A stretch of DNA of 32,000 bases from a virus: IMG/VR virus record IMGVR_UViG_3300045988_065417, positions 1 to 32,000 of that record. One strand, written 5' to 3'. Position numbers and translations under genes: made by a program. Shown one piece after another: positions 8,530 through 25,385 of the stretch. How positions within the stretch are numbered: position 1 is the first letter of the stretch; each line of letters starts with the position of its first letter. A model generated the notes under the pieces. The model did no database searches and was not told where the DNA came from. It worked only from the letters and a program-made list of their open reading frames with translations.

Positions 8530-11105
8530 GCTAACCTCCTAACCATTCTTTCTGTTTCTTGCGCAATTTCGCTAGGTCTTAGCTCCTTCGCTGAATTTAT
8601 AGTCTGATCTACTTGATAGACGACTGTATTGCCTAAGCTGCTTCCTAGGCCTCCAGGATTGCCTTCTAAAGCCAATCTTGAAGTTAGGCTGTCCATGTTA
8701 GCCGCTTCTAGTAAATCACTAGACATGCATCCCATAAAGGCCTTAGCCTTTGGCATAGCTCTTTCTACGCCTAGCGTGATTCCGGCCGGAATCCATTTAC
8801 CAATACGATCTGCGAACAGTCTTGAAGGCGACCCGATCCCTAAGGCACCTTTTACACCGTCAATAAGGCCCTTAGCCATGTTTCCAAGCCATCCAGTCAA
8901 TCCGCTCCATGCGTTGCTGATTCCTCGTTTAATTCCACCTACTATATCCGAGCCAATAGATAGCATCTGTCCCGGTATTTCCTTTACCTTGTTTACAATC
9001 CCGCTAAAGAAATTCTGTCCTGCTTGAATCGCTTGCTGTACAAACTGACTTGCAAAACTTGCGGCATTGCTGATCGTATTTGATAGCCATGTCCATACAT
9101 TACCGGGTAATTGTGAAATAAAGTTGATCGCATTTGATACAAAGTCACGCCCTGCCTGAATCGCTTTCTGGATCATCTGGCTTACCCATTCAGCTGTTTT
9201 GTTGATTGTGTTTAGTAGCCAAGTCCAGATCTGGCCTGGTAGCTGCTTAAACCAATCCACTACTTTCGATATAAACTGCGGAATGTCTTGCGTCGCGAAT
9301 TGTACAAGTCTTAAACCCCACTCTACGAACTTTCCTAGAATGTATCCTACGGCGTATCCGATCCAGTAAGGTATCGTTGATCCGAAAAACGTTTGAATGT
9401 TCGTCACAAGCGTTTGTACGCCGTTTGGAATGGTAATCGTAAAGAATTGAACTACTTGTGTAGCCAGGTTCTGTGCTGCTTCCACGAAACTTTGGCACGC
9501 CTCTGGAATTGTTACTGTAAAGAAGTTTACGATTCCATCTATGACTTGGCCTGTAGTTTCCTTTATGCCTTTCCATAGATTGATCCAGAATTCTCTGAAG
9601 CTGTCGCTGGTATTCCAAAGATATACGAAAGCCGCTACTAATGCTCCGATAGCTACGACCACCAGTGTGATAGGTCCACCGATTACTCCAAGAGCTGCGC
9701 TTAATCCAGAAAGTCCTCCGCCGGCTAGTGTAAAGGCTTCGGCCATACTTGCAATCACGCCTGTTCCTGATGATGCGGCGTAGGCTAGGCCATCAATCAA
9801 TCCAGAGCCTTGTGATACTAAATGTCCGAATGTCTTGATCTTCTTTCCAGCGTCACCGATTGTTTTCGCGATATTACTTACAGCTTTGATTCCTTCCCAG
9901 GCTGCAAAGGCTCCGGCTACGGCTGCAATTAAAGGCATTAGCTCCTGAATCTTATCTGCTACAGTTTGTACTTTGTCTATAATGTCTGGAAGCTTCTCGA
10001 TAAACGCTGCGACGAACTCTCCTACTTTTTCTACAAGAATCGGCAGAATATCTCTGATTCTTTCCAATCCGCTCTTTACAAAGTCTAGGGAATCATTAGA
10101 GTCTAGTTTCTGCGCGATAGTTTCTCGCACGCTGTTCCAGGCCTCTTGAATCTTCTCTGTTGCCGCTTTGATTGCTTCCGCTGTTGGCGCGAAAAAATCT
10201 TTCAGTGCGTTCAACGCTTTCGGTATTTCTTCTGCAATCCAATTTAATCCGTTTTTGATTACGGACCCGAAGTTTGCAATCATTTCTTGAATTGTTGGCA
10301 AGCTGTTATCCGCTAAAAAGTCATTGAACGCTGTAATGATGTTAGCTATACCGATTGCGATACGTGCTGACATATTTGAAAAGCTAGTTGCAAAACTTCC
10401 GGCCATTTCCTTAGATTTTCCAGCTACAGCTGGGAAGGATTCAGTTCCGTTTTCTAGTGCGTCCATCAAAACGTCATTAAATTCTTGCGCACTAATTTTT
10501 CCGGTAGAGAATGCGTCCGAAACTTCTCCCATGCTCTTCCCTGTCTTTTCTGCGAAAATCTTTAAAACGGGAATTCCTGCGTCAGTTAAACGTTGCCATT
10601 GATCTGCAGATATTTTTCCACTGGCGTTCATCTTTGCGATTGCATCTACTGTATTGGCCAGGGTTTCATTGGTTCCGTCTCCATAGAAGGAAACGGCATC
10701 CATCATGTCCTTTACCATTCGGGTAGATTTGTCTAAGCCTAATCCTGATGTGGCTAGCTTTTGAGTCGAACTCGAAGCGGTGTCTAATCCGTATGCCGTA
10801 TCGGATACCGCGTCACTTAGTTCATTTACAACCTTCGCAGCTTTTTTGCTGCTTCCTGCTAAAACTCCTATAACTTGTTTAGCTTTTTGCATGGCATCTA
10901 ATCGGGCGGTTGCTTTTCCGATTGATCCAGATATTAAGTCCCAACCTTTGCTGGCGGCTTTGAATACCGTTGCGCCTACGAAGGTTGACTTCACTTTGTC
11001 TGCGAAGCTTTCCGCACTTTTATGCGCTCCGCTAAGGCCGCTTTTGTATTCGCTGTCGTCAAGTCCTAATTTGACTTTAATTGTTCCATCAGCTCCTGAT
11101 GCCAT
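8520..11105 (-). CDS. Tail tape measure protein
   Basis: 861 aa, Ala/Gly/Ser-rich helical sequence with a central hydrophobic block and internal repeats (QLPGxxWTWL...QxAIQAG). Positioned after the chaperone pair. Confidence 0.9.
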   Translation of the reverse strand: MASGADGTIKVKLGLDDSEYKSGLSGAHKSAESFADKVKSTFVGATVFKAASKGWDLISGSIGKATARLDAMQKAKQVIGVLAGSSKKAAKVVNELSDAVSDTAYGLDTASSSTQKLATSGLGLDKSTRMVKDMMDAVSFYGDGTNETLANTVDAIAKMNASGKISADQWQRLTDAGIPVLKIFAEKTGKSMGEVSDAFSTGKISAQEFNDVLMDALENGTESFPAVAGKSKEMAGSFATSFSNMSARIAIGIANIITAFNDFLADNSLPTIQEMIANFGSVIKNGLNWIAEEIPKALNALKDFFAPTAEAIKAATEKIQEAWNSVRETIAQKLDSNDSLDFVKSGLERIRDILPILVEKVGEFVAAFIEKLPDIIDKVQTVADKIQELMPLIAAVAGAFAAWEGIKAVSNIAKTIGDAGKKIKTFGHLVSQGSGLIDGLAYAASSGTGVIASMAEAFTLAGGGLSGLSAALGVIGGPITLVVVAIGALVAAFVYLWNTSDSFREFWINLWKGIKETTGQVIDGIVNFFTVTIPEACQSFVEAAQNLATQVVQFFTITIPNGVQTLVTNIQTFFGSTIPYWIGYAVGYILGKFVEWGLRLVQFATQDIPQFISKVVDWFKQLPGQIWTWLLNTINKTAEWVSQMIQKAIQAGRDFVSNAINFISQLPGNVWTWLSNTISNAASFASQFVQQAIQAGQNFFSGIVNKVKEIPGQMLSIGSDIVGGIKRGISNAWSGLTGWLGNMAKGLIDGVKGALGIGSPSRLFADRIGKWIPAGITLGVERAMPKAKAFMGCMSSDLLEAANMDSLTSRLALEGNPGGLGSSLGNTVVYQVDQTINSAKELRPSEIAQETERMVRRLAWA

Positions 11106-11117
11106 TTTTTCAGCCTC

Positions 11118-11705
11118 CTAGATTTCTAATCTGGCCAGAAGTTCTGTTTCTATTTCTTGCGGTGTTCTTTCCTTTTCTGGTCCTTTGTCCTCAGGCAGGC
11201 GGTAATACTTTTCTAGGCGCTGCGCATGACTCTTCTCTTCCCCTTTTAGGTTTGAAGTGTCTCTGGTCCTGTATCCAATAACGCGTATGATCATGGTGTC
11301 GTCGCCTAGAGCATTAAAAAGCGCCTTGAATTCAAACCAATGAAGTTTAGCGTCTAAAAGGTTTATGTTGTATTGCTGTCTAAACGCTGCATATATAAGG
11401 TCCATATCGTATTCGAATCGATAGCCTTGTCGTCCGTTTGTCTTGGCATAAGATTCCTTAGGCTTTTTGTTGCAAAAATAAAAGCCCATTATCGCATCCC
11501 ATAGGTCTTTCTGATCACCTTTAAAAGCGAACGGATTGATTCCTATTAGATCACAAATAACGGGCAGCTTCAGCTCCTCTGGTATTGCGTTATCTTGTAT
11601 AACGCTGTCAACTCGGGCCCAGGTTCTAAAGTCTGTGAAAATGGGGAGAACCGTTCCGTTAACGTCTACGCTTTCCGGAAGGTCTTCTCTCTTTAGCCAC
11701 AGCAT
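11118..11705 (-). CDS. Tail assembly chaperone (phage Gp15-like)
   Basis: I prefer the ATG at 11705 (SD GGAGGT). Motifs LPIFTDFRTWARV and IYAAFRQQYNINL resemble the Gp15 family. Lies between tail tube and TMP. Confidence 0.65.
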   Translation of the reverse strand: MLWLKREDLPESVDVNGTVLPIFTDFRTWARVDSVIQDNAIPEELKLPVICDLIGINPFAFKGDQKDLWDAIMGFYFCNKKPKESYAKTNGRQGYRFEYDMDLIYAAFRQQYNINLLDAKLHWFEFKALFNALGDDTMIIRVIGYRTRDTSNLKGEEKSHAQRLEKYYRLPEDKGPEKERTPQEIETELLARLEI

Positions 11706-12120
11706 TTCTACCTCCATATCGTTTGTCTGCGTATTCTAATGTCCTGTTAAATTTGTCCATAGATTCGCAAAGCTTGTCGATTTTATCCAGATTCTTTTTT
11801 TCTTCTTCCGCGACTTTTGCCTGCTGATCCTTTAAAAATTCATCCTGGAAGATGCTGTGTAATGTGAAGCAAAGTTCAAACTGTGCCGAGCTTCCTTCGT
11901 ATCCTTTAAATAGAGTTTCAAAGGCTCCATCTCCTAGAATCTTATCAATCAAAGCAGGACAGTCCTCTAGTGATTCTTTTCCGAATTTGCTAAGTGCATT
12001 TTGTTCAGTTGCCCAATTTTCTAGGGCTTCGATCTTAGAAGTGTCCTTTACATCGACTCTGAATCTGTGTCCGTCGATTTCGATATCTTTAAATAATTGC
12101 TTTTGTAACTTTAGTTCCAT
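11659..12120 (-). CDS. Tail assembly chaperone (first of pair)
   Basis: 153 aa, acidic, between the major tail protein and the Gp15-like ORF. Its 3' end overlaps the next gene by 47 nt. Confidence 0.6.
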   Translation of the reverse strand: MELKLQKQLFKDIEIDGHRFRVDVKDTSKIEALENWATEQNALSKFGKESLEDCPALIDKILGDGAFETLFKGYEGSSAQFELCFTLHSIFQDEFLKDQQAKVAEEEKKNLDKIDKLCESMDKFNRTLEYADKRYGGRNAVAKERRPSGKRRR

Positions 12121-12147
12121 GATGTCCTCCTTATGTTGTTAAGTGCT

Positions 12148-12657
12148 TTACTCTTTGTCTCTGTCTGCGGTGAATATTTTCGTCTTAATGTTAAACGTTC
12201 CCTTTACCTGATCGCCTTGTTGTGCGAACGTTCCAGAGCACATTAGTTTGCCTCCAGCCTCTCCGCTTCCTGGGTTATCTGGTTGCACTTCGTAAACTCT
12301 TTGATAAGCTACAAAGTCCCCAGATTTGTCTACTTTCTCGTTCCATGTTTCCACTTCGATCTCTTCGAAAGTAGAACCGACTATCTGTTCTTTACCTTGC
12401 AAGTACACCCAATAGTTAAATGCGTCTCCTGGATACGCTCGGCCCTCGTAAGACACTGTAGGCGCATAGCCGGTAACCTGGCTTTGGCTTCCGGCCTCTC
12501 CGATATATTGCACCCCATCATCTGTTGTAGCGTTCAAGGCTTGCTCCCAGTTTGTCAATCCCTTGTTGGCTAGAACGTAGCTATCCGAGCCTGTGAATTT
12601 GACGTAATGTAGGTTGTCTTCGACCTTGAGTTCTCTGTTTGGTAGTTCTGATGCCAT
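12148..12657 (-). CDS. Major tail (tube) protein
   Basis: 169 aa. Assigned by position upstream of the chaperones and by size. Confidence 0.65.
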   Translation of the reverse strand: MASELPNRELKVEDNLHYVKFTGSDSYVLANKGLTNWEQALNATTDDGVQYIGEAGSQSQVTGYAPTVSYEGRAYPGDAFNYWVYLQGKEQIVGSTFEEIEVETWNEKVDKSGDFVAYQRVYEVQPDNPGSGEAGGKLMCSGTFAQQGDQVKGTFNIKTKIFTADRDKE

Positions 12658-13121
12658 TATTCAAACCTTCCTTTCTTTTCGTAGGTTAATGTCATAGAGC
12701 AGTAGAAAGTTGAAAGCGCGGCCTCTTCTCCCGTGTAGTCTGAAGGTAGCGTTGTGAGTGCGACATCTTGCGGTGTTGCTTCGTCTAGCACGAGATTTGG
12801 AAAACCTTGCGCCTCTTCTTCCGCGAGTGCCTGTACTATTGCATACAGGATTCTGGATAAGTCCAGACGTGCTTTCGTGTCCTTTCTGCTTGCTTGAATA
12901 TAAATTTCAAAAGGGTAAGTAGCTCTATAGCCACCACCCAGATAGTGTTCTATTTCTTCCGTGTAGCCACTACTTTTGAAAAGTAAGGCGGTGTGCTTGG
13001 ATTCGTTAAAATACTCCAGGCACCACGGTATGTTGTTGATATTGATTGAAGAAAAAAAGCTATACAATCCGTCCTCAATCTGTTTTACGTCTTCCAGCTT
13101 TATGATCTTCTTTTCACTCAT
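12657..13121 (-). CDS. Head-tail joining / tail completion protein
   Basis: 154 aa, overlapping starts and stops within the connector gene block. Synteny only. Confidence 0.55.
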   Translation of the reverse strand: MSEKKIIKLEDVKQIEDGLYSFFSSININNIPWCLEYFNESKHTALLFKSSGYTEEIEHYLGGGYRATYPFEIYIQASRKDTKARLDLSRILYAIVQALAEEEAQGFPNLVLDEATPQDVALTTLPSDYTGEEAALSTFYCSMTLTYEKKGRFE

Positions 13122-13537
13122 CTGAATTCCTCCTTAAAAAATTTTTTAGCGCCTTCCATCCAGGCATTCTTTCTTGCTTTCAAAGTTTTAGGCCACCACT
13201 CCGAACCTCCTTGTCTATAACTCAAATTTCGAGTTGTATAGACTTTTGTTTCTCCGTGTTTAGCCCATGGACTGTGGCTATGGGTTCCAATCATCACTCT
13301 TCCCGTATGTTGGAAGTGTGCATATGGCGTATCCCATACGATCCAATCGTTATCCTGTGCCGCCCATCTTAAAGCTGATGTTCTCAGTGTTCCTTTTCCG
13401 ATAGGCACGTTTTTGTTCGTGTCTTGAACGATAAGCTGCTTCAGCTTCAATCTAGACCGTCGGAGCGCTTTTGTTCCTCTGGCCTGTAGCTGTGCCACCG
13501 GGATATCAACTATAACTTTTAGATGATACTCACTCAC
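13118..13537 (-). CDS. Head-tail joining protein (minor capsid protein family-like)
   Basis: 139 aa. The motif NVPIGKGTLRTSA...VWDTPYAHFQHTG resembles the minor-capsid/HK97 gp10-like neck family. Confidence 0.6.
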   Translation of the reverse strand: MSEYHLKVIVDIPVAQLQARGTKALRRSRLKLKQLIVQDTNKNVPIGKGTLRTSALRWAAQDNDWIVWDTPYAHFQHTGRVMIGTHSHSPWAKHGETKVYTTRNLSYRQGGSEWWPKTLKARKNAWMEGAKKFFKEEFR

Positions 13538-13901
13538 ATGTTACCTCTATGAATTCCGGCGTATTTCTCAAGGGATTTAGAATATTCACATTTGTGATCT
13601 CGTAAATGTCGCCGTGTACTTCGATACGGTCCCCGGTTCTAATTGTGAATTGAGTGTCTGGCGTCTTAAATTCTGAAGGGGGAACTAGAACCTTGTCAGC
13701 CTTATAATCGTTCACGTCTATCGTTATGAGGATCGTATCTGAATTACTGGCGCCCGTCTGTCCATAAGTCCGGGCTTTTGTTTTGGAAACCTTTACGTGT
13801 TGGACCGTTACTGTTGACGTAATTTCTTCCAGGTTTTCTTCACCTAGAATGTTCATGACTTTTATTGTATGCGGCCTAAGCCATCTCGGGCTTTTCACCA
13901 A
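13530..13901 (-). CDS. Head-tail connector protein
   Basis: 123 aa, overlapping neighbours. Synteny only. Confidence 0.55.
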   Translation of the reverse strand: MVKSPRWLRPHTIKVMNILGEENLEEITSTVTVQHVKVSKTKARTYGQTGASNSDTILITIDVNDYKADKVLVPPSEFKTPDTQFTIRTGDRIEVHGDIYEITNVNILNPLRNTPEFIEVTCE

Positions 13902-14290
13902 ACCGCCTGGCAGGCTAGTCCTGCTTTGAGTAATTGGTAGTCGAGCTCTGATGCTGCTAGGCTTGATAAGGGTATGTCATGGAACCTTATCGTTTTAGCA
14001 TTATCTACGGAATACGAGAAACCGCTTGTGGTTGCGCCTGTGAAGTTCATATCGCTAGAACCTACAAAGCAGTCCATGCCGCCATGTGCTTCTATGAAGT
14101 CAATCTGGTATAGGACTACTTTTTTTAGGTCCATGCCGTAATCTTCCAAAGCCTGAACTTTCCAGTATGGAATATTCTCTCGAATGTAGGATTCTAGAAG
14201 ACTTTCGGTTCTTGGTTCTATTTGTGAGTACTCCACTTCATCCAGTAGCGTTCCACCTAAGGTTGTGTATTCCTCAAAGCTTAGGATCAT
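13895..14290 (-). CDS. Head-tail connector protein
   Basis: 131 aa, first gene after the major capsid. Synteny only. Confidence 0.55.
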   Translation of the reverse strand: MILSFEEYTTLGGTLLDEVEYSQIEPRTESLLESYIRENIPYWKVQALEDYGMDLKKVVLYQIDFIEAHGGMDCFVGSSDMNFTGATTSGFSYSVDNAKTIRFHDIPLSSLAASELDYQLLKAGLACQAVW

Positions 14291-14301
14291 GTTTTATCTC
14301 C

Positions 14302-15294
14302 TTATCCTGCAGTAGGAGCTACTTGTACATTACGGAATACACCGGCTTTAGTTGTATCTTTTGAAACGATAGAAGCAATCATTTCTACTTCTCCTTTTTT
14401 AACGGCTCCAGGTTCGCTTAAATTTGGCATATATTGACGAATGATTTTCTGCCCTTGCGGACTTACTGCGTGCACGGCATCCAATCCTAATTTTGCAGCG
14501 TAAATGCTTGTTGTTCCTGTTGTTTCGTCGATAGGTACGCACATCAAGGATTTAGTTCCATTGTAGTATTCTCCCATGTCAACGATTGCGATTCCGTCGT
14601 AGTTGTCTACGCCTTGGCCGAAGCTGTCCTCTGATCTTGTGTAGTATCCTTGCATTTTAGCGATTGTTTTTAAAACAGTAGCTGTCTTGCGGTTTACTAA
14701 TAAAGCGTCTGGTTTTACAGAGAATTCTGATAGCCAAGAATCCAATGCAAAAGTGAAGGCATCTGCGTTTTCTTTGATCTTTGCTGCTGTCGACAAATCA
14801 AAGGCTGCATCTGCGTTTTTCTCTTCTGTATTTGTTCCCTTTACTAATACATCCAAACCGTCAAAGCCTGAGTTATCTGTTGCAGCAGTTCCTTTGACTG
14901 TTGACTTTCCATTAATGAAGTCATAGTGGAATTTGTTCTTTACTGCAATGATTTTCTGAGCTAATTGGAATGCAATTTCTGAGCTTGCTGCTGTGTCTTC
15001 TAATACACGGTCTACTTCGTAAGCCCCACCAAAGATTTTTAAGTTTGTAGTTTTCTGAGTCTTTACAGCTTCTCCTGCTGTGTATTCGCTATTCAATTTA
15101 CGACCTTCAGCCACTGATGGTGTTTTTAATTGCAAACAGCCATAAGTTAATGTCGAGCCACCTGTTCCTGGTGATACCACATTATCGAAAGTTAAACGAT
15201 CCAAAATAAAAGAGTCCCTACGGAACTCATCAATGACCTGCTGGTCTACGTGATCGGCTAAACCGACTTTTGATTGCTCTAATGTAATTGGCAT
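14302..15294 (-). CDS. Major capsid protein
   Basis: 330 aa directly after the scaffold gene, with a strong SD. Size and position are typical. Confidence 0.8.
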   Translation of the reverse strand: MPITLEQSKVGLADHVDQQVIDEFRRDSFILDRLTFDNVVSPGTGGSTLTYGCLQLKTPSVAEGRKLNSEYTAGEAVKTQKTTNLKIFGGAYEVDRVLEDTAASSEIAFQLAQKIIAVKNKFHYDFINGKSTVKGTAATDNSGFDGLDVLVKGTNTEEKNADAAFDLSTAAKIKENADAFTFALDSWLSEFSVKPDALLVNRKTATVLKTIAKMQGYYTRSEDSFGQGVDNYDGIAIVDMGEYYNGTKSLMCVPIDETTGTTSIYAAKLGLDAVHAVSPQGQKIIRQYMPNLSEPGAVKKGEVEMIASIVSKDTTKAGVFRNVQVAPTAG

Positions 15295-15307
15295 CTTTTA
15301 GTTCCTC

Positions 15308-15871
15308 CTATTTTTTATAGTATTCTGAAATTGCGCCGGCTAGAGTTGTTGGTGCCTCTGGTTTCGGACTTCCTTCGTGATTTCCATCAAGCACGACGTC
15401 GTTCCCATTTTTTGGCTTGTTTGGCTCTGCCGCCTTAAATAAGAAGCTGTCTTCTTTCTTGATAGCTTCGATTTGTTCGTCAAGTCCTGTTAATTTTCCA
15501 TCTTTATCAAACTTGATCTTGTCTTTATCTAGTAATCCCATCAAGGCCTTTTCAGATAAGGTTCCAGATTTCGCGATAGCTAAACGAATTGCGCTGTCAC
15601 GTTTTGTTTCTTCCAAGTCATGATCGTATTTTGTTTTCCAGTCGTTGACGTCTTTTTGTAGTTGTTTTACGTCTACTCCGTCAAAATCCTTGACGCTTTG
15701 TGTAAGCTCTTGAATGCGCGTTTCTTTGGCTTGCATGTCACTCTCGTATTTTGCTTTCGAAACGTATTCTCCTGAGGCTAGGTTTGCTAATTTTACGGTT
15801 TTATTTCCTTCTAGCTTAGCTGCAACCTGTGCATACAATTCCTCACCTAAGATTTCTTTTAAAAACTCCAT
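15308..15871 (-). CDS. Scaffolding protein (phage GP20-like)
   Basis: 187 aa. The N-terminus MEFLKEILGEELYAQVAAKLEG...LANLASGEYVSKAKYE matches the GP20 pattern. Coiled-coil rich. Confidence 0.8.
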   Translation of the reverse strand: MEFLKEILGEELYAQVAAKLEGNKTVKLANLASGEYVSKAKYESDMQAKETRIQELTQSVKDFDGVDVKQLQKDVNDWKTKYDHDLEETKRDSAIRLAIAKSGTLSEKALMGLLDKDKIKFDKDGKLTGLDEQIEAIKKEDSFLFKAAEPNKPKNGNDVVLDGNHEGSPKPEAPTTLAGAISEYYKK

Positions 15872-15921
15872 TTTTGTCCTCCTGCGTTTTTTATATCTGG
15901 TTCACTCCAGTATCGAGTCCG

Positions 15922-15971
15922 GCCTTTTATATCCCGTGCCGAGGGGTATTCAAGCCTTTTATATGCCGTGC
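15922..15971. promoter_or_regulatory. Two 18-bp direct repeats GCCTTTTATAT(C/G)CCGTGC spaced 32 bp apart, upstream of the scaffold gene
   Basis: 15922-15939 and 15954-15971 differ at one base. A third TTTTATAT unit sits at 15889-15896. On the minus strand they read GCACGGNATATAAAAGGC. Confidence 0.5.
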
Positions 15972-15983
15972 TTAGGGCATAAT

Positions 15984-16009
15984 AAAAACCGCGCCATTCC
16001 TAGCACGGT
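15984..16009 (-). terminator. Intrinsic terminator after the YjcQ-like gene
   Basis: Minus strand ACCGTGC-taggaatg-GCGCGGT followed by TTTTT. Near-identical copy of 16373-16399. Confidence 0.7.
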
Positions 16010-16032
16010 TCTTGTCCTTATTTAGTTGTGTT

Positions 16033-16353
16033 CTATAGTACTTCCGCAATTCCTTTTGCAAGTCTTGCGGCTTTCTGCATCAAGCTGTTTTCTTCTAGGT
16101 ATTCTAGTCCCTTAAGGGTTATCCTGATACCCTCTAGCCCTTCAATGTTTGGTGTTTGGTCTCCTATGTATTGAATCACCTGGAATCCCTCAACGTATCT
16201 ATTTTTCAGTAGCATGCCTAGAAGTGCTTTTCTCTTTGGCTCTGTGATGTCTAGGTTATCCGCTGAAAGTCTTCGAATGTCTACTACCTCATAGTCCATT
16301 GATTTCTGCAGAGTTGATAGAATTTTGTATATCGTTCTGAAGTCTTCCGACAT
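16033..16353 (-). CDS. YjcQ-family winged-helix protein
   Basis: 106 aa. IYKILSTLQKSMD...ITLKGLEYLEENSLMQKA matches the YjcQ pattern (iT.kGieYLeENS). SD GGAGG. Confidence 0.7.
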   Translation of the reverse strand: MSEDFRTIYKILSTLQKSMDYEVVDIRRLSADNLDITEPKRKALLGMLLKNRYVEGFQVIQYIGDQTPNIEGLEGIRITLKGLEYLEENSLMQKAARLAKGIAEVL

Positions 16354-16372
16354 GTTCTGCCTCCTATCTACT

Positions 16373-16399
16373 AAAAAACCGCGCTATTTCTAGCACGGT
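16373..16399 (-). terminator. Intrinsic terminator after the MuF-like gene (paralogous copy)
   Basis: Minus strand ACCGTGC-tagaaata-GCGCGGT followed by TTTTTT. 24 of 26 positions match 15984-16009. Confidence 0.7.
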
Positions 16400-16462
16400 A
16401 GATAAGCCCACCCGGTGATGCTTACCCGGGGTCCCTTTTGGCCACTGCGGCGTGTGGACGCA

Positions 16463-18058
16463 TCATTCCTCCACCTTAGGCTTTTCTTCACTTACAGTAT
16501 ACTCTTGATTTTCCTTAAAGTAAACCTTTGTTATACGGCCCTTTTTTTCAGCTTTTTCTATTTGTTTTTGTCTCATAAATTGTCCAGTAATAATTGAATG
16601 AAATTTTTCGTTGCCCCCTGTTGATAGTTTCAATGTTATTTTTGCATTGTGGTCATCCAGTTTTTTGACTACCCATCTTGTGTTTTCTTTTCCATTTTCA
16701 ATGTACACAGCGTCTGGATCAGTAAGAATACTAGGTAAATTTTTTACGATAGCATCCACCGCTTCAGGGTGACTTTCTTTTATGTGCTTTTTCCTTTCAT
16801 CCATCAAAATTACTTTTGAACTAGAGCCTTCTGGTGCCTTATATTTAGAAGAGTCTATATTACACAGAACTTCGTATTTTGGTATGTCTGTATTCGTTTC
16901 TTTATCGCTTACTTGTGCATTGGCCTTTGTAGTAACTCGTTTCTTCGGTATTCTTACAGGCTTGTAAGGTCTGCCCTTTGTTCCGCCTATCTTCTCGGCT
17001 GAGTAATCTCGCTTCAGATACCCGTTAGAAGCGTCCACAAGCTCTTTCAGTCTCATCTTGTTGTATTTATACCAGTAGTCCTCTTTTGTCGTGTCTAGCC
17101 CTGCTGCGGCTTTCACACGTCGCTCTCTGTCCCACTTTCTCATGTTTCTTTCGTAAGACCTTTGCTTTTGCTCCATCTGGTATATTCTGTCATTTTCTTT
17201 AGGATTTACAGGCTTGTTGTAATCCTCACTTATTCCTGGAAAGTATGCGGTAAATGAATGCCTACAGTTCCACCCGCCAAGTCCTGCACCTGTTCCGTAT
17301 CCTGTGGCCTCATAAAAGTTCTCGTAATTTCCTTCCGGATAGTTTACCCAGAATACTTTTCCTTGCCAGGCTGCGTGGCTTGGTCTGGCTCCCATGTGGG
17401 CACTTGTCTGTACTAGATTTATATCTAGCTCATCAATGACCGATTTCTCGCAAGCCAGGGCGTTCTGGTTTACTGCGGTTCGTACTGCCAATCGAACGGC
17501 CGCCTCGATTGATCGTTGAGCACCGCTTGGGTAGGATACTTTTGTTAGGCCTTCTTTGCATAGCTTATCTATTGTGTTTGCGGTCGCTTGATCTAGTGAG
17601 TAAGCTCCGCTTGATACCTGAAGATAAGCCATGTCATAGTATCTCATAAAAGTGTCGCTAGCCAGTTGAGCTGTGGTCCTTGTAAGGTTCTGGATGTCTC
17701 CCCACAGTGCTGATGTTCCTTTTTTGATCTGATTCGAAAATTCTAAGCCGCTTGTGTCGTATCCTCCAGCCTCTAGTCTATCGAAGGTATCACGGATACT
17801 TTTATAAGCGCTCTGTTGCATGATCCGGTCGACTTCTTCTTCGGAAGTGTGTAGTATCTCAGCTAGTCTTTTATTAATCCAGTCTTGCTGGAGTCCTAGC
17901 TGCTTTAGCTTGTTGTTTAAATACTCCGTGGTGCTTGTCATAGCGTCCTGATTCATCTTGATCCGCTCCGCTATGTCCACCAGTATTTCTGTGGCCAGTT
18001 CCTGATACAGCTTTTCTAGGTCGTCACCTACGTTCTGTAGGTAGTTTGGTTCTAGCAT
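16463..18058 (-). CDS. Minor head protein (MuF / SPP1 gp7 / minor capsid protein 2-like) fused to a C-terminal PBECR-like nuclease module
   Basis: 531 aa after the portal. The N-terminal part has ...GLGGWNCRHSFTAYFPG... The C-terminal ~135 aa (KVILMDERKKHIKESHPEAVDAIVKNLPSILTDPDAVYIENG...) resembles phage Barnase-EndoU-ColicinE5/D-RelE-like (PBECR) domains. Confidence 0.8.
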   Translation of the reverse strand: MLEPNYLQNVGDDLEKLYQELATEILVDIAERIKMNQDAMTSTTEYLNNKLKQLGLQQDWINKRLAEILHTSEEEVDRIMQQSAYKSIRDTFDRLEAGGYDTSGLEFSNQIKKGTSALWGDIQNLTRTTAQLASDTFMRYYDMAYLQVSSGAYSLDQATANTIDKLCKEGLTKVSYPSGAQRSIEAAVRLAVRTAVNQNALACEKSVIDELDINLVQTSAHMGARPSHAAWQGKVFWVNYPEGNYENFYEATGYGTGAGLGGWNCRHSFTAYFPGISEDYNKPVNPKENDRIYQMEQKQRSYERNMRKWDRERRVKAAAGLDTTKEDYWYKYNKMRLKELVDASNGYLKRDYSAEKIGGTKGRPYKPVRIPKKRVTTKANAQVSDKETNTDIPKYEVLCNIDSSKYKAPEGSSSKVILMDERKKHIKESHPEAVDAIVKNLPSILTDPDAVYIENGKENTRWVVKKLDDHNAKITLKLSTGGNEKFHSIITGQFMRQKQIEKAEKKGRITKVYFKENQEYTVSEEKPKVEE

Positions 18059-19614
18059 TAGGCTTCACCCTCTGGCTCCTCTTCTTGTGTTTCATCTTGC
18101 TGGAAGAACATACTTTGAATTTTGTCCGCCGGGTTTTGTGTTTCTCCGGTCATCTCGCGTGCGGTCTGTTCGTCTTCTCCGTAGTATCGGACGCGATATT
18201 CCCATTTCTGTAGGATGCCGGCCGAGATTTCCTGAAGCATTCTTAGACGTTCCGCTTCCTCGTCTGAGAACATAGTGTCGTCAAATTGAATTGTGATGCG
18301 TACGTCTGGATCAAGCCCGGATATGTGGCACTTCTCTTTGCCTAGAATGATAATCGATCTCGTTAGCTCTGTAAGGGCGTCCTGGATTGCGATACGTTGC
18401 TTCCAGACGCTTTCTGTTAGCTCTTTATTGCTTGCACGAACCTGCGTTGCTGTGGTCATGTTCTGGATGCTGAACTGGTATCTGTTTTGGCCAAGTCCGC
18501 ATTTACTTGATAAAAGATTTAGATTGAATTGAACATTCTCCTTGTTTTCATCAACTCTAAGGCTGGGGTTGTATTCCTCAAAAAGTCGAGGCTTGTCTGG
18601 GCTTACTTGTGTTCCCGTACTTACGTATAGAGATTTTTCCAAAGTTGCACCAACGTCTGGTTCTTGCCTTACTGGTACTCGTTCACCTTTATCGTTTATC
18701 GCGTAGGCTGTTGGCTTCATGCTGAATAACGCCTGATCCATGAAAACCTTTTTCTTTCCTAGCAAAGTATCCATGAATAGATTGTCGTATGCCAAGTCGC
18801 AGCTTTCTAGCATGTCGATTGCGTTTGCGTAGATCGACATCCCTAATGGTACGTCTGCTATGTTGTTTTCAATGTTCGGCTTCAAAATAACAAACGGTTT
18901 GCAAGGCAATTTATAGCTGATTGCTTCGCCATGTGGTGCTGATACTCTTTCATAGCCTACGGCGTCTCCTGCCACGTTGTTGATCTTGAAGTAATGGTTG
19001 TAGATTTGGTAGCCTTCTTGCTCTTGCTTGAAGACCTGGATGTACATGAAACGCTCCCCGTTTTGTGTGTACTCGCTAGCTAATGCAATTTCTGAAATAT
19101 CTTCCTCGTCATAGGTCAATGGCACTATTTTCTGCGCGTCCTTGATAGCTTTGATTTGTACGCTCTGGGCACTTAGCTGTCCTTTGTTTACTGTTGGATT
19201 TACAAGCTGCAGATAGAAGCACACGGTCCCTTGTGCGAATTCTCTCTCGACCGCCTTGTTTCCTAGCTTCCAGAACTTGCTGTTTCCTAAAACTCCACCG
19301 TTCTGGTCTTCTTTGTCTCCAGTCAAAAATTCTTGTGTGATGCTCGTTCCGTGGTCATCACACTCTACAAGAATTCTAGTCTTATCGTTTAGAAGTAAAT
19401 CGGCCCAGTCTTCGCAGACCTTCTTGGCCATGCGCATCTGTTTTCTTTTGACTTCTCTTGAGTTTCCGCTTTCGTTCTTGATCTCGTATTTATGAAAATC
19501 TTGAACGTAGCCCTTCCACCAATCGTTCCAGAATTGAATTTTGTTGTAGTAGTCTTGGACTTCCTGGCTCACAGGATATCCTAAGTCCTTTAGTATTGTG
19601 AATAAAACTTTCAT
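18058..19614 (-). CDS. Portal protein (SPP1 Gp6-like)
   Basis: 518 aa immediately after TerL. The N-terminal YYNKIQFWNDWWKGYVQDFHKY motif is typical. Acidic C-terminus. Confidence 0.9.
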   Translation of the reverse strand: MKVLFTILKDLGYPVSQEVQDYYNKIQFWNDWWKGYVQDFHKYEIKNESGNSREVKRKQMRMAKKVCEDWADLLLNDKTRILVECDDHGTSITQEFLTGDKEDQNGGVLGNSKFWKLGNKAVEREFAQGTVCFYLQLVNPTVNKGQLSAQSVQIKAIKDAQKIVPLTYDEEDISEIALASEYTQNGERFMYIQVFKQEQEGYQIYNHYFKINNVAGDAVGYERVSAPHGEAISYKLPCKPFVILKPNIENNIADVPLGMSIYANAIDMLESCDLAYDNLFMDTLLGKKKVFMDQALFSMKPTAYAINDKGERVPVRQEPDVGATLEKSLYVSTGTQVSPDKPRLFEEYNPSLRVDENKENVQFNLNLLSSKCGLGQNRYQFSIQNMTTATQVRASNKELTESVWKQRIAIQDALTELTRSIIILGKEKCHISGLDPDVRITIQFDDTMFSDEEAERLRMLQEISAGILQKWEYRVRYYGEDEQTAREMTGETQNPADKIQSMFFQQDETQEEEPEGEA

Positions 19615-20844
19615 TTAAGTACTCCTTCCTGTGATCAGGTCCATATATGTCGACCAACTATAAAAGTGGGCGTCGAATGTATCGACGTCGGTTGTAAAGT
19701 CATCCAGAATCTTATCTTCCTTCGATTTTGTATCGTATAAAGCTGTGCTCAAACTTTCGACCACCATAGGTACTGCCTGGAACTTCATCTTGTGTCGGTT
19801 CAGCAACATGTTGTAGGTCAGAATACGTGTCTTTCCGTCTATCTTGCGGCAATCCATCACATTGGTTGGAAAGCCTGCCCTTTGTACGGCTACTCGTATA
19901 CTGTTCAAAATGACTTGTTCTGCGTTATCTACAAAAACACTTGATACCACAAATCCTTGAATCCATAAAGCTCTGATCAGGTCGACTGTCTCTGTGCAAA
20001 GTCTTTCGGCATCTATAGTTCCTTTAGCGTGTACTACTTTACGTTCTGCAAAGGTTACAATCTCAGAAAGGTCTGCAGTGATCCCCGTTACGATCAGGCT
20101 ACTATGTGAACGTGTTCCACCTATGTCCAGGCCTATGTTGATCATGTTAAAAAGTGGAAGTTCTCCTTTGACTTCCCACTCGTCTGGATTGTCTGCAAAC
20201 TGTGGAAAGAGTAGCCCTTCCGCGTTGCACCATTCTCCCAGTATGTATCTGTTGTATAGGACTGTCCCTCGATATTCGAGTTTCAAGTTTTCCACGAATT
20301 CCTGCGGCAGAAACGGGTTGTCCTCAATCGTATATTTCTGGCGGAAGATGTCGGCTCCTGATTCTAGAAACTTTAGAAACCAATGGTTCTTGTTGTCCGG
20401 GTTGCATGTTCCGTCAAAGCAGCTATACGGTTTATCTAGACGCGATTTTAGCATGTCAAATACTTTCTTATTCCAGGTTACGACTTCATCCCCGTAGCAG
20501 TACGCTACTGAGGCCCCTTGTATCTTTGTTACCTGGCTTTCTTTGTCTGCGCCTATTGCGTAGCAGTTACGGCCGAATAGTCGCACAGTGTTGTCTGGTC
20601 TTACTCTTCCAACTAGTTCAGGGCCATACAATTCTCGCATGGGTTCTAGAACGTTTCTTTCAAGTGTTGACTTTGTGTTTCCTATGAGGAACACGTGGCC
20701 TGGAAGGCCCTCTATAGCTCGAATACGTTTCGGGATGATGTAATAGTCCAGCCACGTCTTTCCGCTACGTGTAGCCCCTTCTTTTATGTTCCAGCGGCTT
20801 GGTTTATGATTCCAGAACTCTTTCTGTTTCTCAGTCAGTTCCAC
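19615..20844 (-). CDS. terL: Terminase large subunit (PBSX-family type)
   Basis: 409 aa. Walker A GATRSGKT near the N-terminus. Overlaps the TerS stop. Confidence 0.9.
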   Translation of the reverse strand: MELTEKQKEFWNHKPSRWNIKEGATRSGKTWLDYYIIPKRIRAIEGLPGHVFLIGNTKSTLERNVLEPMRELYGPELVGRVRPDNTVRLFGRNCYAIGADKESQVTKIQGASVAYCYGDEVVTWNKKVFDMLKSRLDKPYSCFDGTCNPDNKNHWFLKFLESGADIFRQKYTIEDNPFLPQEFVENLKLEYRGTVLYNRYILGEWCNAEGLLFPQFADNPDEWEVKGELPLFNMINIGLDIGGTRSHSSLIVTGITADLSEIVTFAERKVVHAKGTIDAERLCTETVDLIRALWIQGFVVSSVFVDNAEQVILNSIRVAVQRAGFPTNVMDCRKIDGKTRILTYNMLLNRHKMKFQAVPMVVESLSTALYDTKSKEDKILDDFTTDVDTFDAHFYSWSTYMDLITGRST

Positions 20845-21334
20845 TGTTGTCTCCGGCTACTGTGTCCATAGCTTTCAGTAAAAGATCCAGTTTCGTAATC
20901 TCTTTAGAAGGGTCTCCTTGTCTCTTGATCTGTTCAGCTTGTGCGTTCATCAGCTTCGTTCGGGCTCTGTCTAGACTTGTGACTGGTTGCTGTCCTGTAA
21001 GGTCTCGAATGAATTCTGCAGCCCTTACGTCTCCGCGTGTGGCTTTGTTGAACATGGTTGCGGCTAAAAGCATTTGATTGCTGAGCTCATCATCTTCTAA
21101 TCCCATGTCGATCAGCTTCTCTTTATTTCTTTCGCTTGGCTCCAACTCTAGGATTGCCGCCAGGCATTGTTTCAACTTCTTTTTCTTTTTCTGGACTTTC
21201 TGGCTTGCGGCTCCGCCTTTGCGTCCCATCTCTGCTGCATTCTCTTTCGTGAAAGGCTTCAGGTTTTGCATAGGGTCTTTGCGCTGTCTGGCCGCTTCGC
21301 TTTTTGTACGTCCGGCTAATCCCTTAGCAGGCAT
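20831..21334 (-). CDS. terS: Terminase small subunit (putative)
   Basis: 167 aa basic protein (NLKPFTKENAAEMGRKGGAAS...ATRGDVRAAEFIRDLTG) overlapping the TerL start by 14 nt. Confidence 0.6.
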   Translation of the reverse strand: MPAKGLAGRTKSEAARQRKDPMQNLKPFTKENAAEMGRKGGAASQKVQKKKKKLKQCLAAILELEPSERNKEKLIDMGLEDDELSNQMLLAATMFNKATRGDVRAAEFIRDLTGQQPVTSLDRARTKLMNAQAEQIKRQGDPSKEITKLDLLLKAMDTVAGDNSGTD

Positions 21335-21579
21335 CTGATATCAGCTCCGCCTGTTCTCCGGTGTAATCTTCCCAGCGCTTGATAACTACATCGGCAAAGT
21401 GTGGATCATACTCCATCATGAAGCACCTCCGTCCTAGCTGTTCGCAAGCCATAAGCGTGGAGTCTGAACCTCCGAATAGGTCCAGCACGTTTCCTCCATT
21501 TCGGCTGCTGTTCTTGATCTGTCTTGCAATCAGTGGAATTGGTTTCATGGTTGGATGTTCTTATGTCTTTAATGTTCAT
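21324..21579 (-). pseudogene. Remnant of a beta-class N6A/N4C DNA methyltransferase (C-terminal third only, frame broken)
   Basis: Frame A: EHPTMKPIPLIARQIKNSS..VLDLFGGSDSTLMACEQLGRRCFMMEYD (HPTxKP plus FGGSxST motif I). No DPPY motif. A native-looking SD plus ATG at 21579 (MNIKDIR) is in another frame, and a TAA sits 4 codons before MKP. Confidence 0.65.
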
Positions 21580-21600
21580 GTGTGTTCACCTCTGTTGTAT

Positions 21601-22194
21601 TAAAAAAGAAGCGTTAGCAGCTCAGTGTTCTCTCCAATGAGAGGTCTATCCTGTTTAGCTTCTAAGGCTTCTTTGTTGTCTATGATTACCCGGAGCGCTG
21701 AAAAGAAGATAAAATTTATGTCCATGATTTGTCGTAGCTGATGTTTGACGTTGTCTGGAAAGCACTCGTTTTTTTATAAAGGAGGACGCTCCGGGTAAAA
21801 GAAAAGGGGCCCTTTTCTATCGGTCCTCTTTTACAAGTACTAATATACCACTTTAAAGTGGTACACAGTGGGAACTCTTTAGCTTTTTGTGAGCTTTTTT
21901 ACTTCCGCCATCAGATGTTTATATAGTCCTCGTCTACTGTGCCTCAAGTTTAGCTGCATGAAGGGTTGCTACTTCTTCGAGCTTGTTTCCTAGCTGATCA
22001 CGTTTATAGATTTCTCCTGATGTCATCTGTAGCAGCTGACCGCATAGCACTCCAGCGTTGGCTGCTAGCAATGATTCGTTGTTATCTAGTTCCAGAACCT
22101 TCTCACGTTTGAAAGCGTGGTATTCTGTCATCGCTTTTTGAGGTAGCTCGATTGATTTTTTTAAGTACTGAACCGGTTGAAGTTTGTCAACAGT
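21601..22194 (-). pseudogene. Remnant of a phage SNF2-family helicase (inter-lobe segment readable, remainder decayed)
   Basis: Open frame 22194-21934: ...IELPQKAMTEYHAFKREKVLELDNNESLLAANAGVLCGQLLQMTSGEIY...LHAAKLEA matches the linker pattern of phage SNF2 helicases (aanaavl..kLlQ...GavY...h..Kl.aL). It has no N-terminal ATPase lobe. Downstream only broken frames remain. Confidence 0.5.
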
Positions 22195-22325
22195 CTAGAT
22201 GCAAGTGTTCTTGCCGAATGGTCATTCTTAATGTTAGGATATGCAACTTTGTATGCTCTTGTTGCATTCAAATCAATCAAATACTCGTCAACAAATAATT
22301 TCTGCTTTTCTGTCAATTTAGCCAT
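22161..22325 (-). pseudogene. N-terminal fragment (54 aa) of a Terminase_2-type small terminase, with an intact SD
   Basis: Not in the ORF track. MAKLTEKQKLFVDEYLIDLNATRAYKVAYPNIKNDHSARTLASRLLTN then FNRFST-stop. Matches the LTxKQxxFxxEYxxxxNAtxAxxxAGYSxKtAxxxaSRLLxN signature. SD AAAGGAGGA upstream. Confidence 0.65.
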
Positions 22326-22365
22326 AGAATTCCTCCTTTCATTATTTTGAAATTAAATATCTGTC

Positions 22366-22707
22366 TTAATGCCCTTTCCATCCTTTTCTTGGTGAGCCAG
22401 CTCCTCTTACCCACAATTGATCTACTTCTTTTGCTATTTGTCTTTTTCGACGACGTTGTTCTGAATCTTTATTAGCTAAATCTCGGCTTGTAAGCTTTTG
22501 TACTTTATAACCCATAGATTTTGCCCTAGAAGCTATATCGGATAAGGTCCTAGGAATTTCCCTACTTCCACTATCAGCAAATGATGCACCGGAAAAAGAA
22601 AATACTTTCTTTCCTTTTTGCCTATACTCAAATACAGTTCCATCTCCTGTGGTAACAGTTAAACCAACTGTCCCCCCCCGATTTACATATTGGCCTCTTC
22701 CACCCAT
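22366..22707 (-). CDS. Small basic protein starting MGGRG (113 aa), unknown function
   Basis: SD AAGGAGGA 9 nt upstream of the ATG. Gly-rich N-terminus and a basic C-terminal tail (RRRKRQIAKEVDQLW). Confidence 0.6.
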   Translation of the reverse strand: MGGRGQYVNRGGTVGLTVTTGDGTVFEYRQKGKKVFSFSGASFADSGSREIPRTLSDIASRAKSMGYKVQKLTSRDLANKDSEQRRRKRQIAKEVDQLWVRGAGSPRKGWKGH

Positions 22708-22732
22708 ATAATATTTCCTCCTTATTCATGTA

Positions 22733-22764
22733 TAAAAAAAGCACCTTGAATTAACAAGATGCTT
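22733..22764 (-). terminator. Intrinsic terminator immediately upstream of the 113-aa gene SD
   Basis: Minus strand AAGCATCTTG-ttaatt-CAAGGTGCTT (10 bp with one G-U) followed by TTTTTTTAT. Confidence 0.7.
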
Positions 22765-22893
22765 AGATAGCGTTTAAAATTTAAACTGATATTTTTTAAT
22801 AAATCGAAAAGGCGCTCCGATTCGAACGGAGGTTTCCTCAGTGCATATCGTTTTGTGATATGCATGCATCAAAGTGTAATCACCCCTATACGA

Positions 22894-23292
22894 CTACCTT
22901 TTCTTATTTTTATTTAACCATAACCGTTTTACACGGTCAACCATTTTCCTTTCCTCTGCAGTCAAGTTTGTGGCACCTTTTTTCCCGTCACGTTCAGAAT
23001 GATAATAACCATGATGAGTATGTGGCTTCATATTTTGATGATCATGTGTTAAATCAATCTGTTTTGTACGTTTATTTGAATTGTCATAATAAGAAATTGA
23101 TGAAATTTCATCTTTATCATTTACTGTGGCATATACTCGCCCTCTGGTCATCGTTTCCATCGGAGCTTTTGCATTACTAGCATTGGCTTGCTTCACAAAT
23201 TTAATATTTCCACTCTGATAAACTGTATTGTATTCGCTCCCATAAGGCTTTCCACTGTCACTGACACCGCTGCTTGCTCCTCTACCGCCCAT
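22894..23292 (-). CDS. Small His-rich protein starting MGGRGASSG (132 aa), unknown function
   Basis: The start overlaps the DUF4417 stop by 11 nt. Motifs NIKFVKQ, RVYATVN, DLTHDHQNMKPHTHHGYYHSE. Basic tail EERKMVDRVKRLW. Confidence 0.65.
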   Translation of the reverse strand: MGGRGASSGVSDSGKPYGSEYNTVYQSGNIKFVKQANASNAKAPMETMTRGRVYATVNDKDEISSISYYDNSNKRTKQIDLTHDHQNMKPHTHHGYYHSERDGKKGATNLTAEERKMVDRVKRLWLNKNKKR

Positions 23293-23920
23293 GTTTTCTT
23301 GCCCTCTCTATAACTTTATTTTTATAATAAATAACTTTTGTTCCTTTGAAATCATGTTCAATAGATTGGCCATAAATTAGAATTGCAGTAGGTTTAAGCT
23401 TATCAATCATGTAATCTACACCATCTTTCCAAATGGATCTAGCATATTCATCCTTAATACATCCAATAGTTGAGATTGCCACAATACCCCCTGGTTCAAT
23501 GCCATCAAAACAGAATGTGTATGTTTCTCTTTCGGCCCAGGAAACTGTTGGAATCACACATATTCCTTGACTCTGAAGGTATTGCCCAATTAATCTACTT
23601 CTATAGATATTCCATACTTTCATAGCTCTAGGCATATCCATATAAAGAGAAAAGTCTGGTGTAAGAACACAGTCATACTGTTTTAAGACATTCACATATC
23701 GTTCGGGAGTGTTCCAAATGCGCTCAAACTGATAATCATCAATAAACATATGAATTCCAGATTGATAATTCTTTGAAGAAATTGCTTCATTGAATCCAAT
23801 TAACTCATTAGGAATATGAAGTGTCTTTTTAATTACTGGCATTTCAAATGGACCGTCTGCTTCATATGGATCATATAAATCTAGATTGTATTTTTTGATT
23901 GTTAGTTCTCTTCCTGGCAT
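23282..23920 (-). CDS. DUF4417-family protein
   Basis: I prefer the ATG at 23920 (SD GGAGGTG). MFIDDYQFERIWNTPERYVNVLKQYDCVLTPDFSLYMDMPRAMKVWNIYRSRLIGQYLQSQGICVIPTVSW matches the DUF4417 signature as I recall it. Confidence 0.75.
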   Translation of the reverse strand: MPGRELTIKKYNLDLYDPYEADGPFEMPVIKKTLHIPNELIGFNEAISSKNYQSGIHMFIDDYQFERIWNTPERYVNVLKQYDCVLTPDFSLYMDMPRAMKVWNIYRSRLIGQYLQSQGICVIPTVSWAERETYTFCFDGIEPGGIVAISTIGCIKDEYARSIWKDGVDYMIDKLKPTAILIYGQSIEHDFKGTKVIYYKNKVIERARKHGR

Positions 23921-23941
23921 AGAACACCTCCTTTCTTGCAT

Positions 23942-23966
23942 AAAAAAAGCCAAGACCTCTGTCTTG
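23942..23966 (-). terminator. Hairpin plus T7 immediately upstream of the DUF4417 SD
   Basis: Minus strand CAAGAC-agag-GTCTTG followed by GCTTTTTTTAT. Confidence 0.5.
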
Positions 23967-24359: not shown

Positions 24360-24398
24360 ATATTCAATGTTCAAAAAAAGCTGAACATTCAATATAGT

Positions 24399-25384: not shown

Positions 25385-25385
25385 T

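Follow-up and report, generated by a model that had tools for sequence, protein, structure and literature searches.

The window analysed here is a stretch of 32,000 nucleotides of viral DNA (IMG/VR record IMGVR_UViG_3300045988_065417, positions 1 to 32,000), and the gene in question is muf, which lies on its minus strand at 16463-18058 and encodes a minor head protein of 531 amino acids. The last 158 residues of this MuF protein are an exchangeable add-on cassette of a predicted PBECR ribonuclease (RNase) family. We favour, at a probability of roughly 0.6, a reading in which a MuF minor head protein of the SPP1 gp7/Phage_min_cap2 class bears an exchangeable RNase-like cargo that would serve the incoming phage. 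A first-pass annotation, made from the DNA letters alone, had proposed an AT-richer PBECR-like nuclease module at 16463-16960; it gave the open reading frame (ORF), its coordinates and a quoted peptide correctly, and its interval is almost exactly the recombination cassette as delimited by blastn breakpoints.

The protein consists of a conserved core and a variable end. Phage_min_cap2 (PF06152) covers MuF residues 2-341 with an E value of 1.2e-86 in Pfam, and the name 'minor head protein' is the PHROG 581 assignment of the 531-residue product. The core is 91-98% identical in relatives with differing C-termini, and homology with these relatives extends to ...GRPYKPVRIPKK at residue 373. With the full-length protein as query, 2,145 MuF homologues were obtained, and the sequence after residue 373 was classified in the 36 protein clusters that share at least 90% core identity with the window protein. 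A PBECR3-like C-terminus is present in 12 of the 36 clusters and a RadC/JAB-like one, with an HNHP…S..D motif, in 11; PBECR2-like C-termini account for four (one as in the window and three only ∼45% identical), a helical C-terminus of 106 amino acids for another four and Ntox50 for two, and in three clusters the C-terminus is absent, the protein being 373-376 amino acids long. Pfam backs the Ntox50 label with 74 bits, and the PBECR3 and RadC labels with 25.8 and 19.1 bits, both of them sub-threshold. Cores that are 98% identical bear non-homologous tails, and the occurrence of five kinds of cassette and one null allele on cores sharing at least 90% identity amounts to polymorphism of the class described by Jamet et al. 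(2017).

All variants share the junction …KPVRIPKK, and the DNA breakpoints are sharp. The cassette was in all probability recombined in at this conserved junction (…GRPYKPVRIPKK), the likely source being AT-richer DNA. Separate acquisition, which had been proposed from base composition, is directly shown by this cassette replacement on near-identical cores; the C-terminal extension is not conserved at uniform composition in all homologues, as its tails are swapped and lower in GC. A natural allele without cargo also occurs (L007 and L008 3001-4370; at least 15 contigs), in which MuF stops at ...PVRIPKK after 373 amino acids and the deletion reaches into the neighbouring yjcQ gene, leaving a C-terminal fragment of 60 amino acids.

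Comparison with related loci by blastn places the left breakpoint at about 16897-16941 and the right one at 16366-16467. Nine related loci show 92-95% DNA identity through the terminase, portal and MuF core and then none past this breakpoint; similarity resumes at 16467, 16398, 16370, 16366, 16221 or 16035, according to the partner locus, and identity past the cassette is 90-97% through the scaffold and capsid genes. The boundary of recombination on the right side in locus L002 (16398) falls at the start of a terminator-like hairpin. The cassette (16466-16939) has a GC content of 34.8%, with 27.2% at third codon positions (GC3), against 46.0% and 47.5% in the MuF core. It is the lowest-GC stretch of 474 nucleotides in the structural module (5000-22000; z = -3.4), but its GC content is ordinary when set against the whole window, in which the early and lysis regions are as AT-rich. 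The alternative cassettes of the related loci have GC contents of 36.7-39.3%, every one below the core, and that of the window is the lowest. The hand-counted drop in GC reported earlier is therefore real and larger than estimated: the range of 32-38% given for 16561-16800 was right (34.2%), whereas 17041-17580 has 46.3% rather than 42-43%. More widely, the lysis/tail-distal region (1-4800) and the early/regulatory region (22300-31500, including an N6/N4 DNA methylase gene at 29152-30066) have 28-35% GC, as against 43% in the structural module.

The family of the domain can be recognised through its relatives. When 1.8 billion representatives were searched exhaustively with phmmer, 170 clusters were obtained at E <= 1e-3, among them both the C-termini of proteins of ∼450-550 amino acids and free-standing proteins of 100-200 amino acids. 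Among the 57 aligned relatives (alignment A1), 54 match PBECR2 (E <= 0.01; best 8e-16), 35 match PBECR3 (best E 1e-20) and 25 match MuF_C. A profile of this alignment retrieves 637 proteins, with PBECR2/PBECR3 proteins at E ~1e-40; nearly all of the 120 matches listed out of these 637 had been annotated beforehand with PF18810/PF18812, and some carry the NCBI name 'PBECR2 nuclease fold domain-containing protein'. With the domain alone as query, a word-indexed search of proteins returned two near-identical fragments only. Residues 391-518 thus probably belong to the PBECR2/PBECR3/MuF_C clade of predicted metal-independent endoribonucleases with the fold called BECR after Barnase, EndoU, ColicinE5/D and RelE. 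Stand-alone PBECR2/3 homologues also exist outside intact phage head modules (L011-L013 4001-4384; L014-L016 4001-4435). One is apparently chromosomal, near a LytTR two-component system, SufBD and MurJ, and has no obvious antitoxin; another adjoins a pair of nSTAND3-AAA and S8-peptidase genes beside a phage scaffold gene.

Members of the PBECR clade and BECR RNases such as colicin D have a histidine in a helix and a serine or threonine in strand 4 (Iyer et al., 2017, PMC5512222). The corresponding residues of the window protein would be His425 and Ser488. His425 is invariant in alignment A1. Over 291 unique homologous domains it is conserved at 99%, Ser488 at 96%, His430 at 97%, Pro448 at 99%, Asp449 at 92% and Thr460 at 96%; Glu421, Arg422, Thr491 and Tyr513 are conserved at 81-87% (Thr491 at 81%). 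The window protein retains all ten of these residues (E421, R422, H425, H430, P448, D449, T460, S488, T491 and Y513). An AlphaFold2 model of 144 amino acids, computed from the alignment, has a pLDDT of 91 and a pTM of 0.81, the pLDDT being 65 at model residues 131-140 and 85 for the final four (acidic tail). The predicted chain begins with two strands, passes through three short helices into an antiparallel set of four strands and closes with one more helix and a final strand. In this model, His425 lies in a helix (33-42), as expected from Iyer et al. (2017), and Ser488 is on the fourth of the strands that follow the helices (100-108), where the serine or threonine is expected.

In BFVD, Foldseek matches of the model have E values of 3e-10 to 2e-4 and TM scores of 0.62-0.75; the matched proteins are a minor capsid protein of a phage, a phage protein that is uncharacterized, several 'MuF C-terminal domain-containing' ones and an ADP-ribosyltransferase of the polyvalent kind. 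Against the PDB, the whole 144-residue model is dominated by spurious CorA matches, with a Salmonella toxin-antitoxin (TA) toxin on top at E 0.14. When a trimmed core was modelled (pLDDT 80), the top five PDB matches were BECR toxins at E 5e-3 to 0.25: the TA toxin 7vd7_A (RelE/ParE; E 5e-3, TM 0.57/0.65), 6n90_A (YoeB/ParE), 9g12_B (RelE1), 7m5f_C (a chain of a contact-dependent inhibition (CDI) system, which we take to be CdiA-CT) and 5ycl_D (a chain of a HigBA complex). The Foldseek check of the C-terminal domain proposed by the first-pass annotation thus gives significant matches in BFVD and, in the PDB, RelE/ParE-type toxins on top, though weakly (best E 5e-3). The fold assignment is well supported among predicted proteins and moderately with respect to solved RNases, as judged from the model. 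Taken with the homologues, the family profile and the His/Ser layout, the predicted structure supports, on computational grounds, the proposal of a PBECR-like C-terminal domain, which has profile similarity to PBECR proteins and, in BFVD, structural similarity to MuF_C domains.

These results also bear on whether there is a distinct module at all. The C-terminus could be a fast-evolving, compositionally biased MuF end whose likeness to PBECR arose by chance, a reading to which the sub-threshold Pfam scores would correspond, as would the low GC content, which partly follows a composition rich in Lys, Ile and Glu. Such an end would not be expected to have 170 homologous clusters, many of them stand-alone proteins of 100-200 amino acids, a confident fold prediction and significant BFVD matches, nor to show so steep a fall in GC3 at its junction or non-homologous tails on cores that are 98% identical. 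We regard this reading as refuted by the breakpoints, the homologue clusters, the PBECR2 matches, the BFVD matches and the swapping of tails, and give it next to no credence.

Several observations weigh against the favoured reading of an RNase-like cargo. The window domain itself scores 23.1-23.4 bits against MuF_C (PF18819), its best single Pfam match, where the gathering cut-off is 27.6, and 20.6-21.1 bits against PBECR2 (PF18810), where the cut-off is 27.1; by Pfam gathering threshold it belongs to neither family, and its membership is transitive, via relatives. Asn487, which is 90% conserved and part of the family motif KNS, is His in the window protein. A sequence-profile search of the PDB gave nothing meaningful (best match a puromycin-sensitive aminopeptidase, E 1.3), and neither the full nor the trimmed model has a structural match in the PDB at E <= 1e-3. 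The link to experimentally proven RNases is indirect because the PDB matches are weak by structure and absent by sequence, and in the literature searched no assay of any PBECR domain was found. Lastly, the presence of stand-alone homologues in chromosomes without an obvious antitoxin fits an RNase of narrow specificity, but equally a non-toxic or non-catalytic role.

The domain might accordingly be a non-catalytic, nucleic-acid-binding or structural one that helps with DNA or RNA handling in the capsid, for which the MuF-C of phage Mu gp30, proposed to be inactive (Iyer et al., 2017, PMC5512222), provides a model. That MuF_C is the best single Pfam match would agree with this, as would the lack of an immunity gene in the cassette, the tolerance of solo homologues in chromosomes and the richness of the domain in lysine (15%). 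However, the histidine and the serine or threonine that define PBECR are present and 96-99% conserved over the 291 homologues, and the domain is dispensable and freely swapped at the same site for enzymatic toxin domains (Ntox50), which speaks for an effector of accessory nature and against a structural component. We consider the non-catalytic role doubtful, if worth keeping in view, and the RNase-like cargo the better account.

Table 1. Features of the muf locus and its surroundings, in positions of the window
Feature	Position	Strand	Basis
MuF minor head protein gene, 531 aa	16463..18058	(-)	ORF list and translation; quoted peptide present
MuF core, residues 1-373 (Phage_min_cap2, the 'MuF2' of Jamet et al., 2017), ending ...GRPYKPVRIPKK	16940..18058	(-)	Pfam, PHROG, relatives
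Basic linker, residues 374-390, RVTTKANAQVSDKETNT; start of cassette, holds left breakpoint	16889..16939	(-)	blastn; tails diverge after PKK
PBECR2/MuF_C-like domain, residues 391-518, predicted BECR-fold metal-independent endoribonuclease	16505..16888	(-)	Envelope of family hidden Markov model (HMM)
His425 codon, predicted catalytic His in first core helix (motif ERKKHIKESHPE)	16784..16786	(-)	Conservation and model
Ser488 codon, conserved alcoholic residue in core strand 4 (motif HSIIT)	16595..16597	(-)	Conservation and model
Acidic C-terminal tail, residues 519-531, EYTVSEEKPKVEE, and stop; end of coding part of cassette	16463..16504	(-)	Translation; outside family HMM
Intergenic spacer, 109 nt	16354..16462	(-)	Right cassette boundary at 16366-16467, varying with partner locus
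Terminator-like hairpin (9 pairs) and T-run, in promoter-distal part of spacer between muf and yjcQ, inside late operon	16378-16399	(-)	Terminator scan; fold z-score -1.8
yjcQ, 106 aa, constant right-hand neighbour	16033..16353	(-)	Pfam YjcQ, 79 bits
Portal gene, directly upstream of muf, stop overlapping muf start	18058..19614	(-)	Pfam SPP1_portal, 26.7 bits
Large terminase	19615-20844	(-)	Morphogenesis block
167-aa ORF, phrog_2412, in small-terminase position		(-)	Morphogenesis block
Scaffold	15308-15871	(-)	Morphogenesis block
Major capsid protein	14302-15294	(-)	Morphogenesis block

The gene downstream of muf, yjcQ, had been suspected of neutralising the domain. On that view, the locus would encode a classical MuF polymorphic toxin, a broadly toxic RNase for bacterial competition or superinfection control, with YjcQ as its immunity protein. 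The arrangement fits the layout of Jamet et al. (2017), namely MuF2, a variable toxin-like C-terminus and a downstream ORF of <150 amino acids. Moreover, yjcQ directly follows PBECR2-like and PBECR3-like cassettes, is truncated where the cargo is deleted (60 amino acids in L007) and is replaced where the RadC-like cassette brings its own ORF (L006, in which yjcQ is missing), so that an ancestral pair of PBECR and YjcQ is conceivable. Yet 98-104 of the 106 residues of YjcQ are identical (92-98%) beside the window cassette and the ∼45%-identical PBECR2-like, PBECR3-like, Ntox50 and helical cassettes. The protein is therefore near-constant beside four unrelated or distant cassettes, including two PBECR2-like ones that are mutually ∼45% identical, whereas an immunity protein cognate to a toxin normally diversifies along with it (PMC12226406). 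Lineages with 50-54% identical MuF and homologous PBECR2-like C-termini have no yjcQ (L017, L019): in one of them nothing is called between muf and scaffold, and in another DUF4417 and an ADP-ribosyl exotoxin gene are found there. Stand-alone PBECR2 genes have no yjcQ neighbour either, and in the window the terminator-like hairpin separates muf from yjcQ.

Because YjcQ does not covary with the cassette and is absent from other PBECR2-bearing lineages, we rejected it as a cognate immunity protein; neutralisation of the domain by the YjcQ-like product is not supported by covariation across loci, and a polymorphic toxin paired with it is unlikely. In a residual reading, YjcQ would be a generic, non-co-evolving partner of PBECR-type cassettes, orphaned when other cassettes replace them. 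Literature searches on YjcQ function and on PDB 7VD7 were uninformative. A hidden immunity ORF was sought in the spacer and on the opposite strand. The ORF list has no credible small ORF in the 109-nucleotide spacer, and the only candidates, a 33-residue GTG ORF overlapping the 3′ end of muf and antisense ORFs of 22-61 amino acids, found no support. No cognate small immunity gene thus lies immediately downstream of muf.

Three of the alternative cassettes differ in this respect. The Ntox50 cassette has its own ORF of 71 amino acids (L004 4557-4772), the helical 106-residue cassette one of 78 (L005 4418-4654) and the RadC/JAB-like cassette one of 50 (L006 4707-4859), each overlapping the muf stop. 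None of the three has a match in Pfam, and all are candidates for an immunity or partner role. The PBECR2-like and PBECR3-like cassettes have no private ORF. That sister cassettes have a partner ORF and the PBECR-type none suggests that the RNase is not generally toxic to its producer, or that it is inactive until released.

The place of muf after the portal gene is canonical, with the N-terminal MuF domain encoded directly downstream of the portal, and all related loci have the order terminase-portal-MuF-scaffold-capsid. Tape measure and amidase genes follow farther along the siphovirus-like minus-strand block. The interval between muf and scaffold seems to be an accessory-gene hot spot. In the 50%-identical lineage (L017 and L018 4551-6571), it contains DUF4417, an ADP-ribosyl exotoxin-family gene (PF03496, 234 amino acids) and an ORF of 67 amino acids; the DUF4417 gene of the window sits elsewhere (23282-23953). 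A search of Rfam gave no match anywhere in the window.

Among GenBank phages, megablast with positions 16000-18100 found no match, and tblastn with the C-terminal 165 amino acids found a single weak one, in an unannotated faecal phage contig. With the full MuF protein, tblastn against deposited phages found cores of <=37% identity only (FP_Lugh, phiCD111 and others) and left the C-terminus uncovered. By these sequence comparisons, no deposited phage genome is closely related to this phage. In metagenomes the phage is common, a 98%-identical MuF cluster comprising 334 member sequences. Related fragments are present beside an integrase in a metagenome-assembled genome of Solobacterium sp., and the host would be a gut or oral Firmicute, possibly Solobacterium. 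No integrase is encoded within the 32-kb window; it contains an ImmA-like M78 peptidase gene (24399-24923), and a near-identical phage is embedded in a contig of 366 kb. As part of the best explanation, the phage would probably be temperate and siphovirus-like.

A small integrative element (L020 1-5200, L010 1-4500) is homologous to the window from 17268 or 17110 down to 15878, and weakly to 20982-21267. It encodes a Prim-Pol/AAA_25 primase-helicase, a tyrosine integrase and a 144-residue phrog_2412 protein related to the putative ORF in the small-terminase position of the window. The element ends in a 5′-truncated muf that still bears a cargo cassette, followed by yjcQ, and its homology ends exactly before the scaffold start. 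In L020 the cassette is PBECR2-like and 91% identical to that of the window; in L010 it is PBECR3-like and is preceded by the 71-residue ORF found with Ntox50 elsewhere. The element looks like a satellite akin to phage-inducible chromosomal islands (PICIs) that has captured the cargo end of MuF.

The locus can be compared with several known systems. SPP1 gp7 is a portal-associated minor head component. It is also the one MuF protein that has been studied experimentally (Jamet et al., 2017, PMC5576092). The window protein shares with SPP1 gp7 and Mu gpF a homologous core, the same post-portal position and a presumed DNA-associated role in few copies per head, but these two are single-domain MuF proteins of PF04233 (Jamet et al., 2017, PMC5576092). 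The C-terminal PBECR (MuF-C) of Mu gpF (gp30) is predicted to be inactive (Iyer et al., 2017, PMC5512222), whereas the window copy is predicted to be active. With PBECR2, PBECR3 and MuF_C (PF18810, PF18812, PF18819) the window domain has in common the sequence family, the helix histidine, the strand-4 serine or threonine, fusion to the C-terminus of MuF by the portal, and solo versions; relative to the PBECR2 and MuF_C models it is divergent, lying between the two, under their gathering scores and with His for Asn487 of KNS. RelE, ParE, YoeB, HigB and CdiA-CT share with it helices packed on a four-stranded antiparallel sheet (TM 0.45-0.65 over 84-95 columns). The window domain is only 10-15% identical to them, is extended by two strands at its N-terminus and by a helix-strand at its C-terminus and, unlike RelE/ParE-type toxins, has no antitoxin partner and is covalently joined to a virion protein.

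The closest published counterparts are MuF fusions of Firmicute phages. Temperate phages of Firmicutes have MuF2 proteins with variable toxin C-termini (Jamet et al., 2017, PMC5576092), with which the window protein shares MuF2 (PF06152), the post-portal position, a variable effector exchanged between near-identical phages, and gut or oral Firmicute phages as source. Apk2, a MuF toxin of the (p)ppApp synthetase kind, is validated, as are the immunity proteins dedicated to it (PMC12226406). Its dedicated immunity gene lies immediately downstream, whereas the window has no cassette-specific ORF and a YjcQ that does not covary; in this the window also differs from its own sister alleles (Ntox50, RadC-like and helical), which bear private small ORFs. 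Fusions of PBECR to MuF have been described as 'the simplest architectures', and their packaging and injection have been predicted (Iyer, Burroughs, Anand, de Souza and Aravind, 2017, PMC5512222); the proposed MuF with PBECR cargo has the architecture described there. Polyvalent proteins have 2-15 effector domains and commonly a processing metallopeptidase (Iyer et al., 2017), whereas the window protein has MuF and the PBECR-like domain only, without a peptidase, and thus stands at the edge of the polyvalent class, in keeping with the 'simplest architectures'. The locus therefore adds a somewhat divergent member to the PBECR-MuF fusions and MuF toxins already published; its modest novelty lies in the series of near-isogenic alleles and in the division of the cassettes into those with a private ORF and the PBECR-type ones without.

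A head is thought to contain 2-3 copies of its MuF protein, which would bind the viral DNA (PMC12226406). In the mechanism that we propose for the window protein, the MuF core would enter the procapsid at the portal, so that a few copies of the RNase-like domain would ride in the virion and leave with the DNA at the next infection. The domain may then cleave a limited range of RNAs, whether host RNA, defence RNA or early mRNA of the phage, favouring the incoming phage. Packaging, ejection, RNase activity and target are all predicted here. Of all phage proteins, effectors borne on MuF are believed to arrive first in the cytoplasm of the host.

A further and rather speculative extension, which we hold to be quite improbable, is that two classes of cassette share one junction, a self-toxic class with a private ORF and the PBECR type on its own, such that PBECR is a target-restricted RNase, and that satellites load effectors in addition. 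If this were true, PBECR cargo would be no general toxin but would, once injected, act on defence RNA of the host or on early transcripts of the phage, and the PICI-like element (L010, L020) could load its own effector into the capsid of a helper phage.

As an annotation, the outcome is otherwise ordinary: a published architecture is confirmed, and the idea of YjcQ as cognate immunity protein is corrected. Beyond this, the locus provides a natural near-isogenic series, in which one backbone carries PBECR2-like, PBECR3-like, Ntox50, RadC-like, helical or no cargo. Such a series could reveal the role of each cargo in infection, lysogeny and anti-defence, and why only some of them need a partner ORF.

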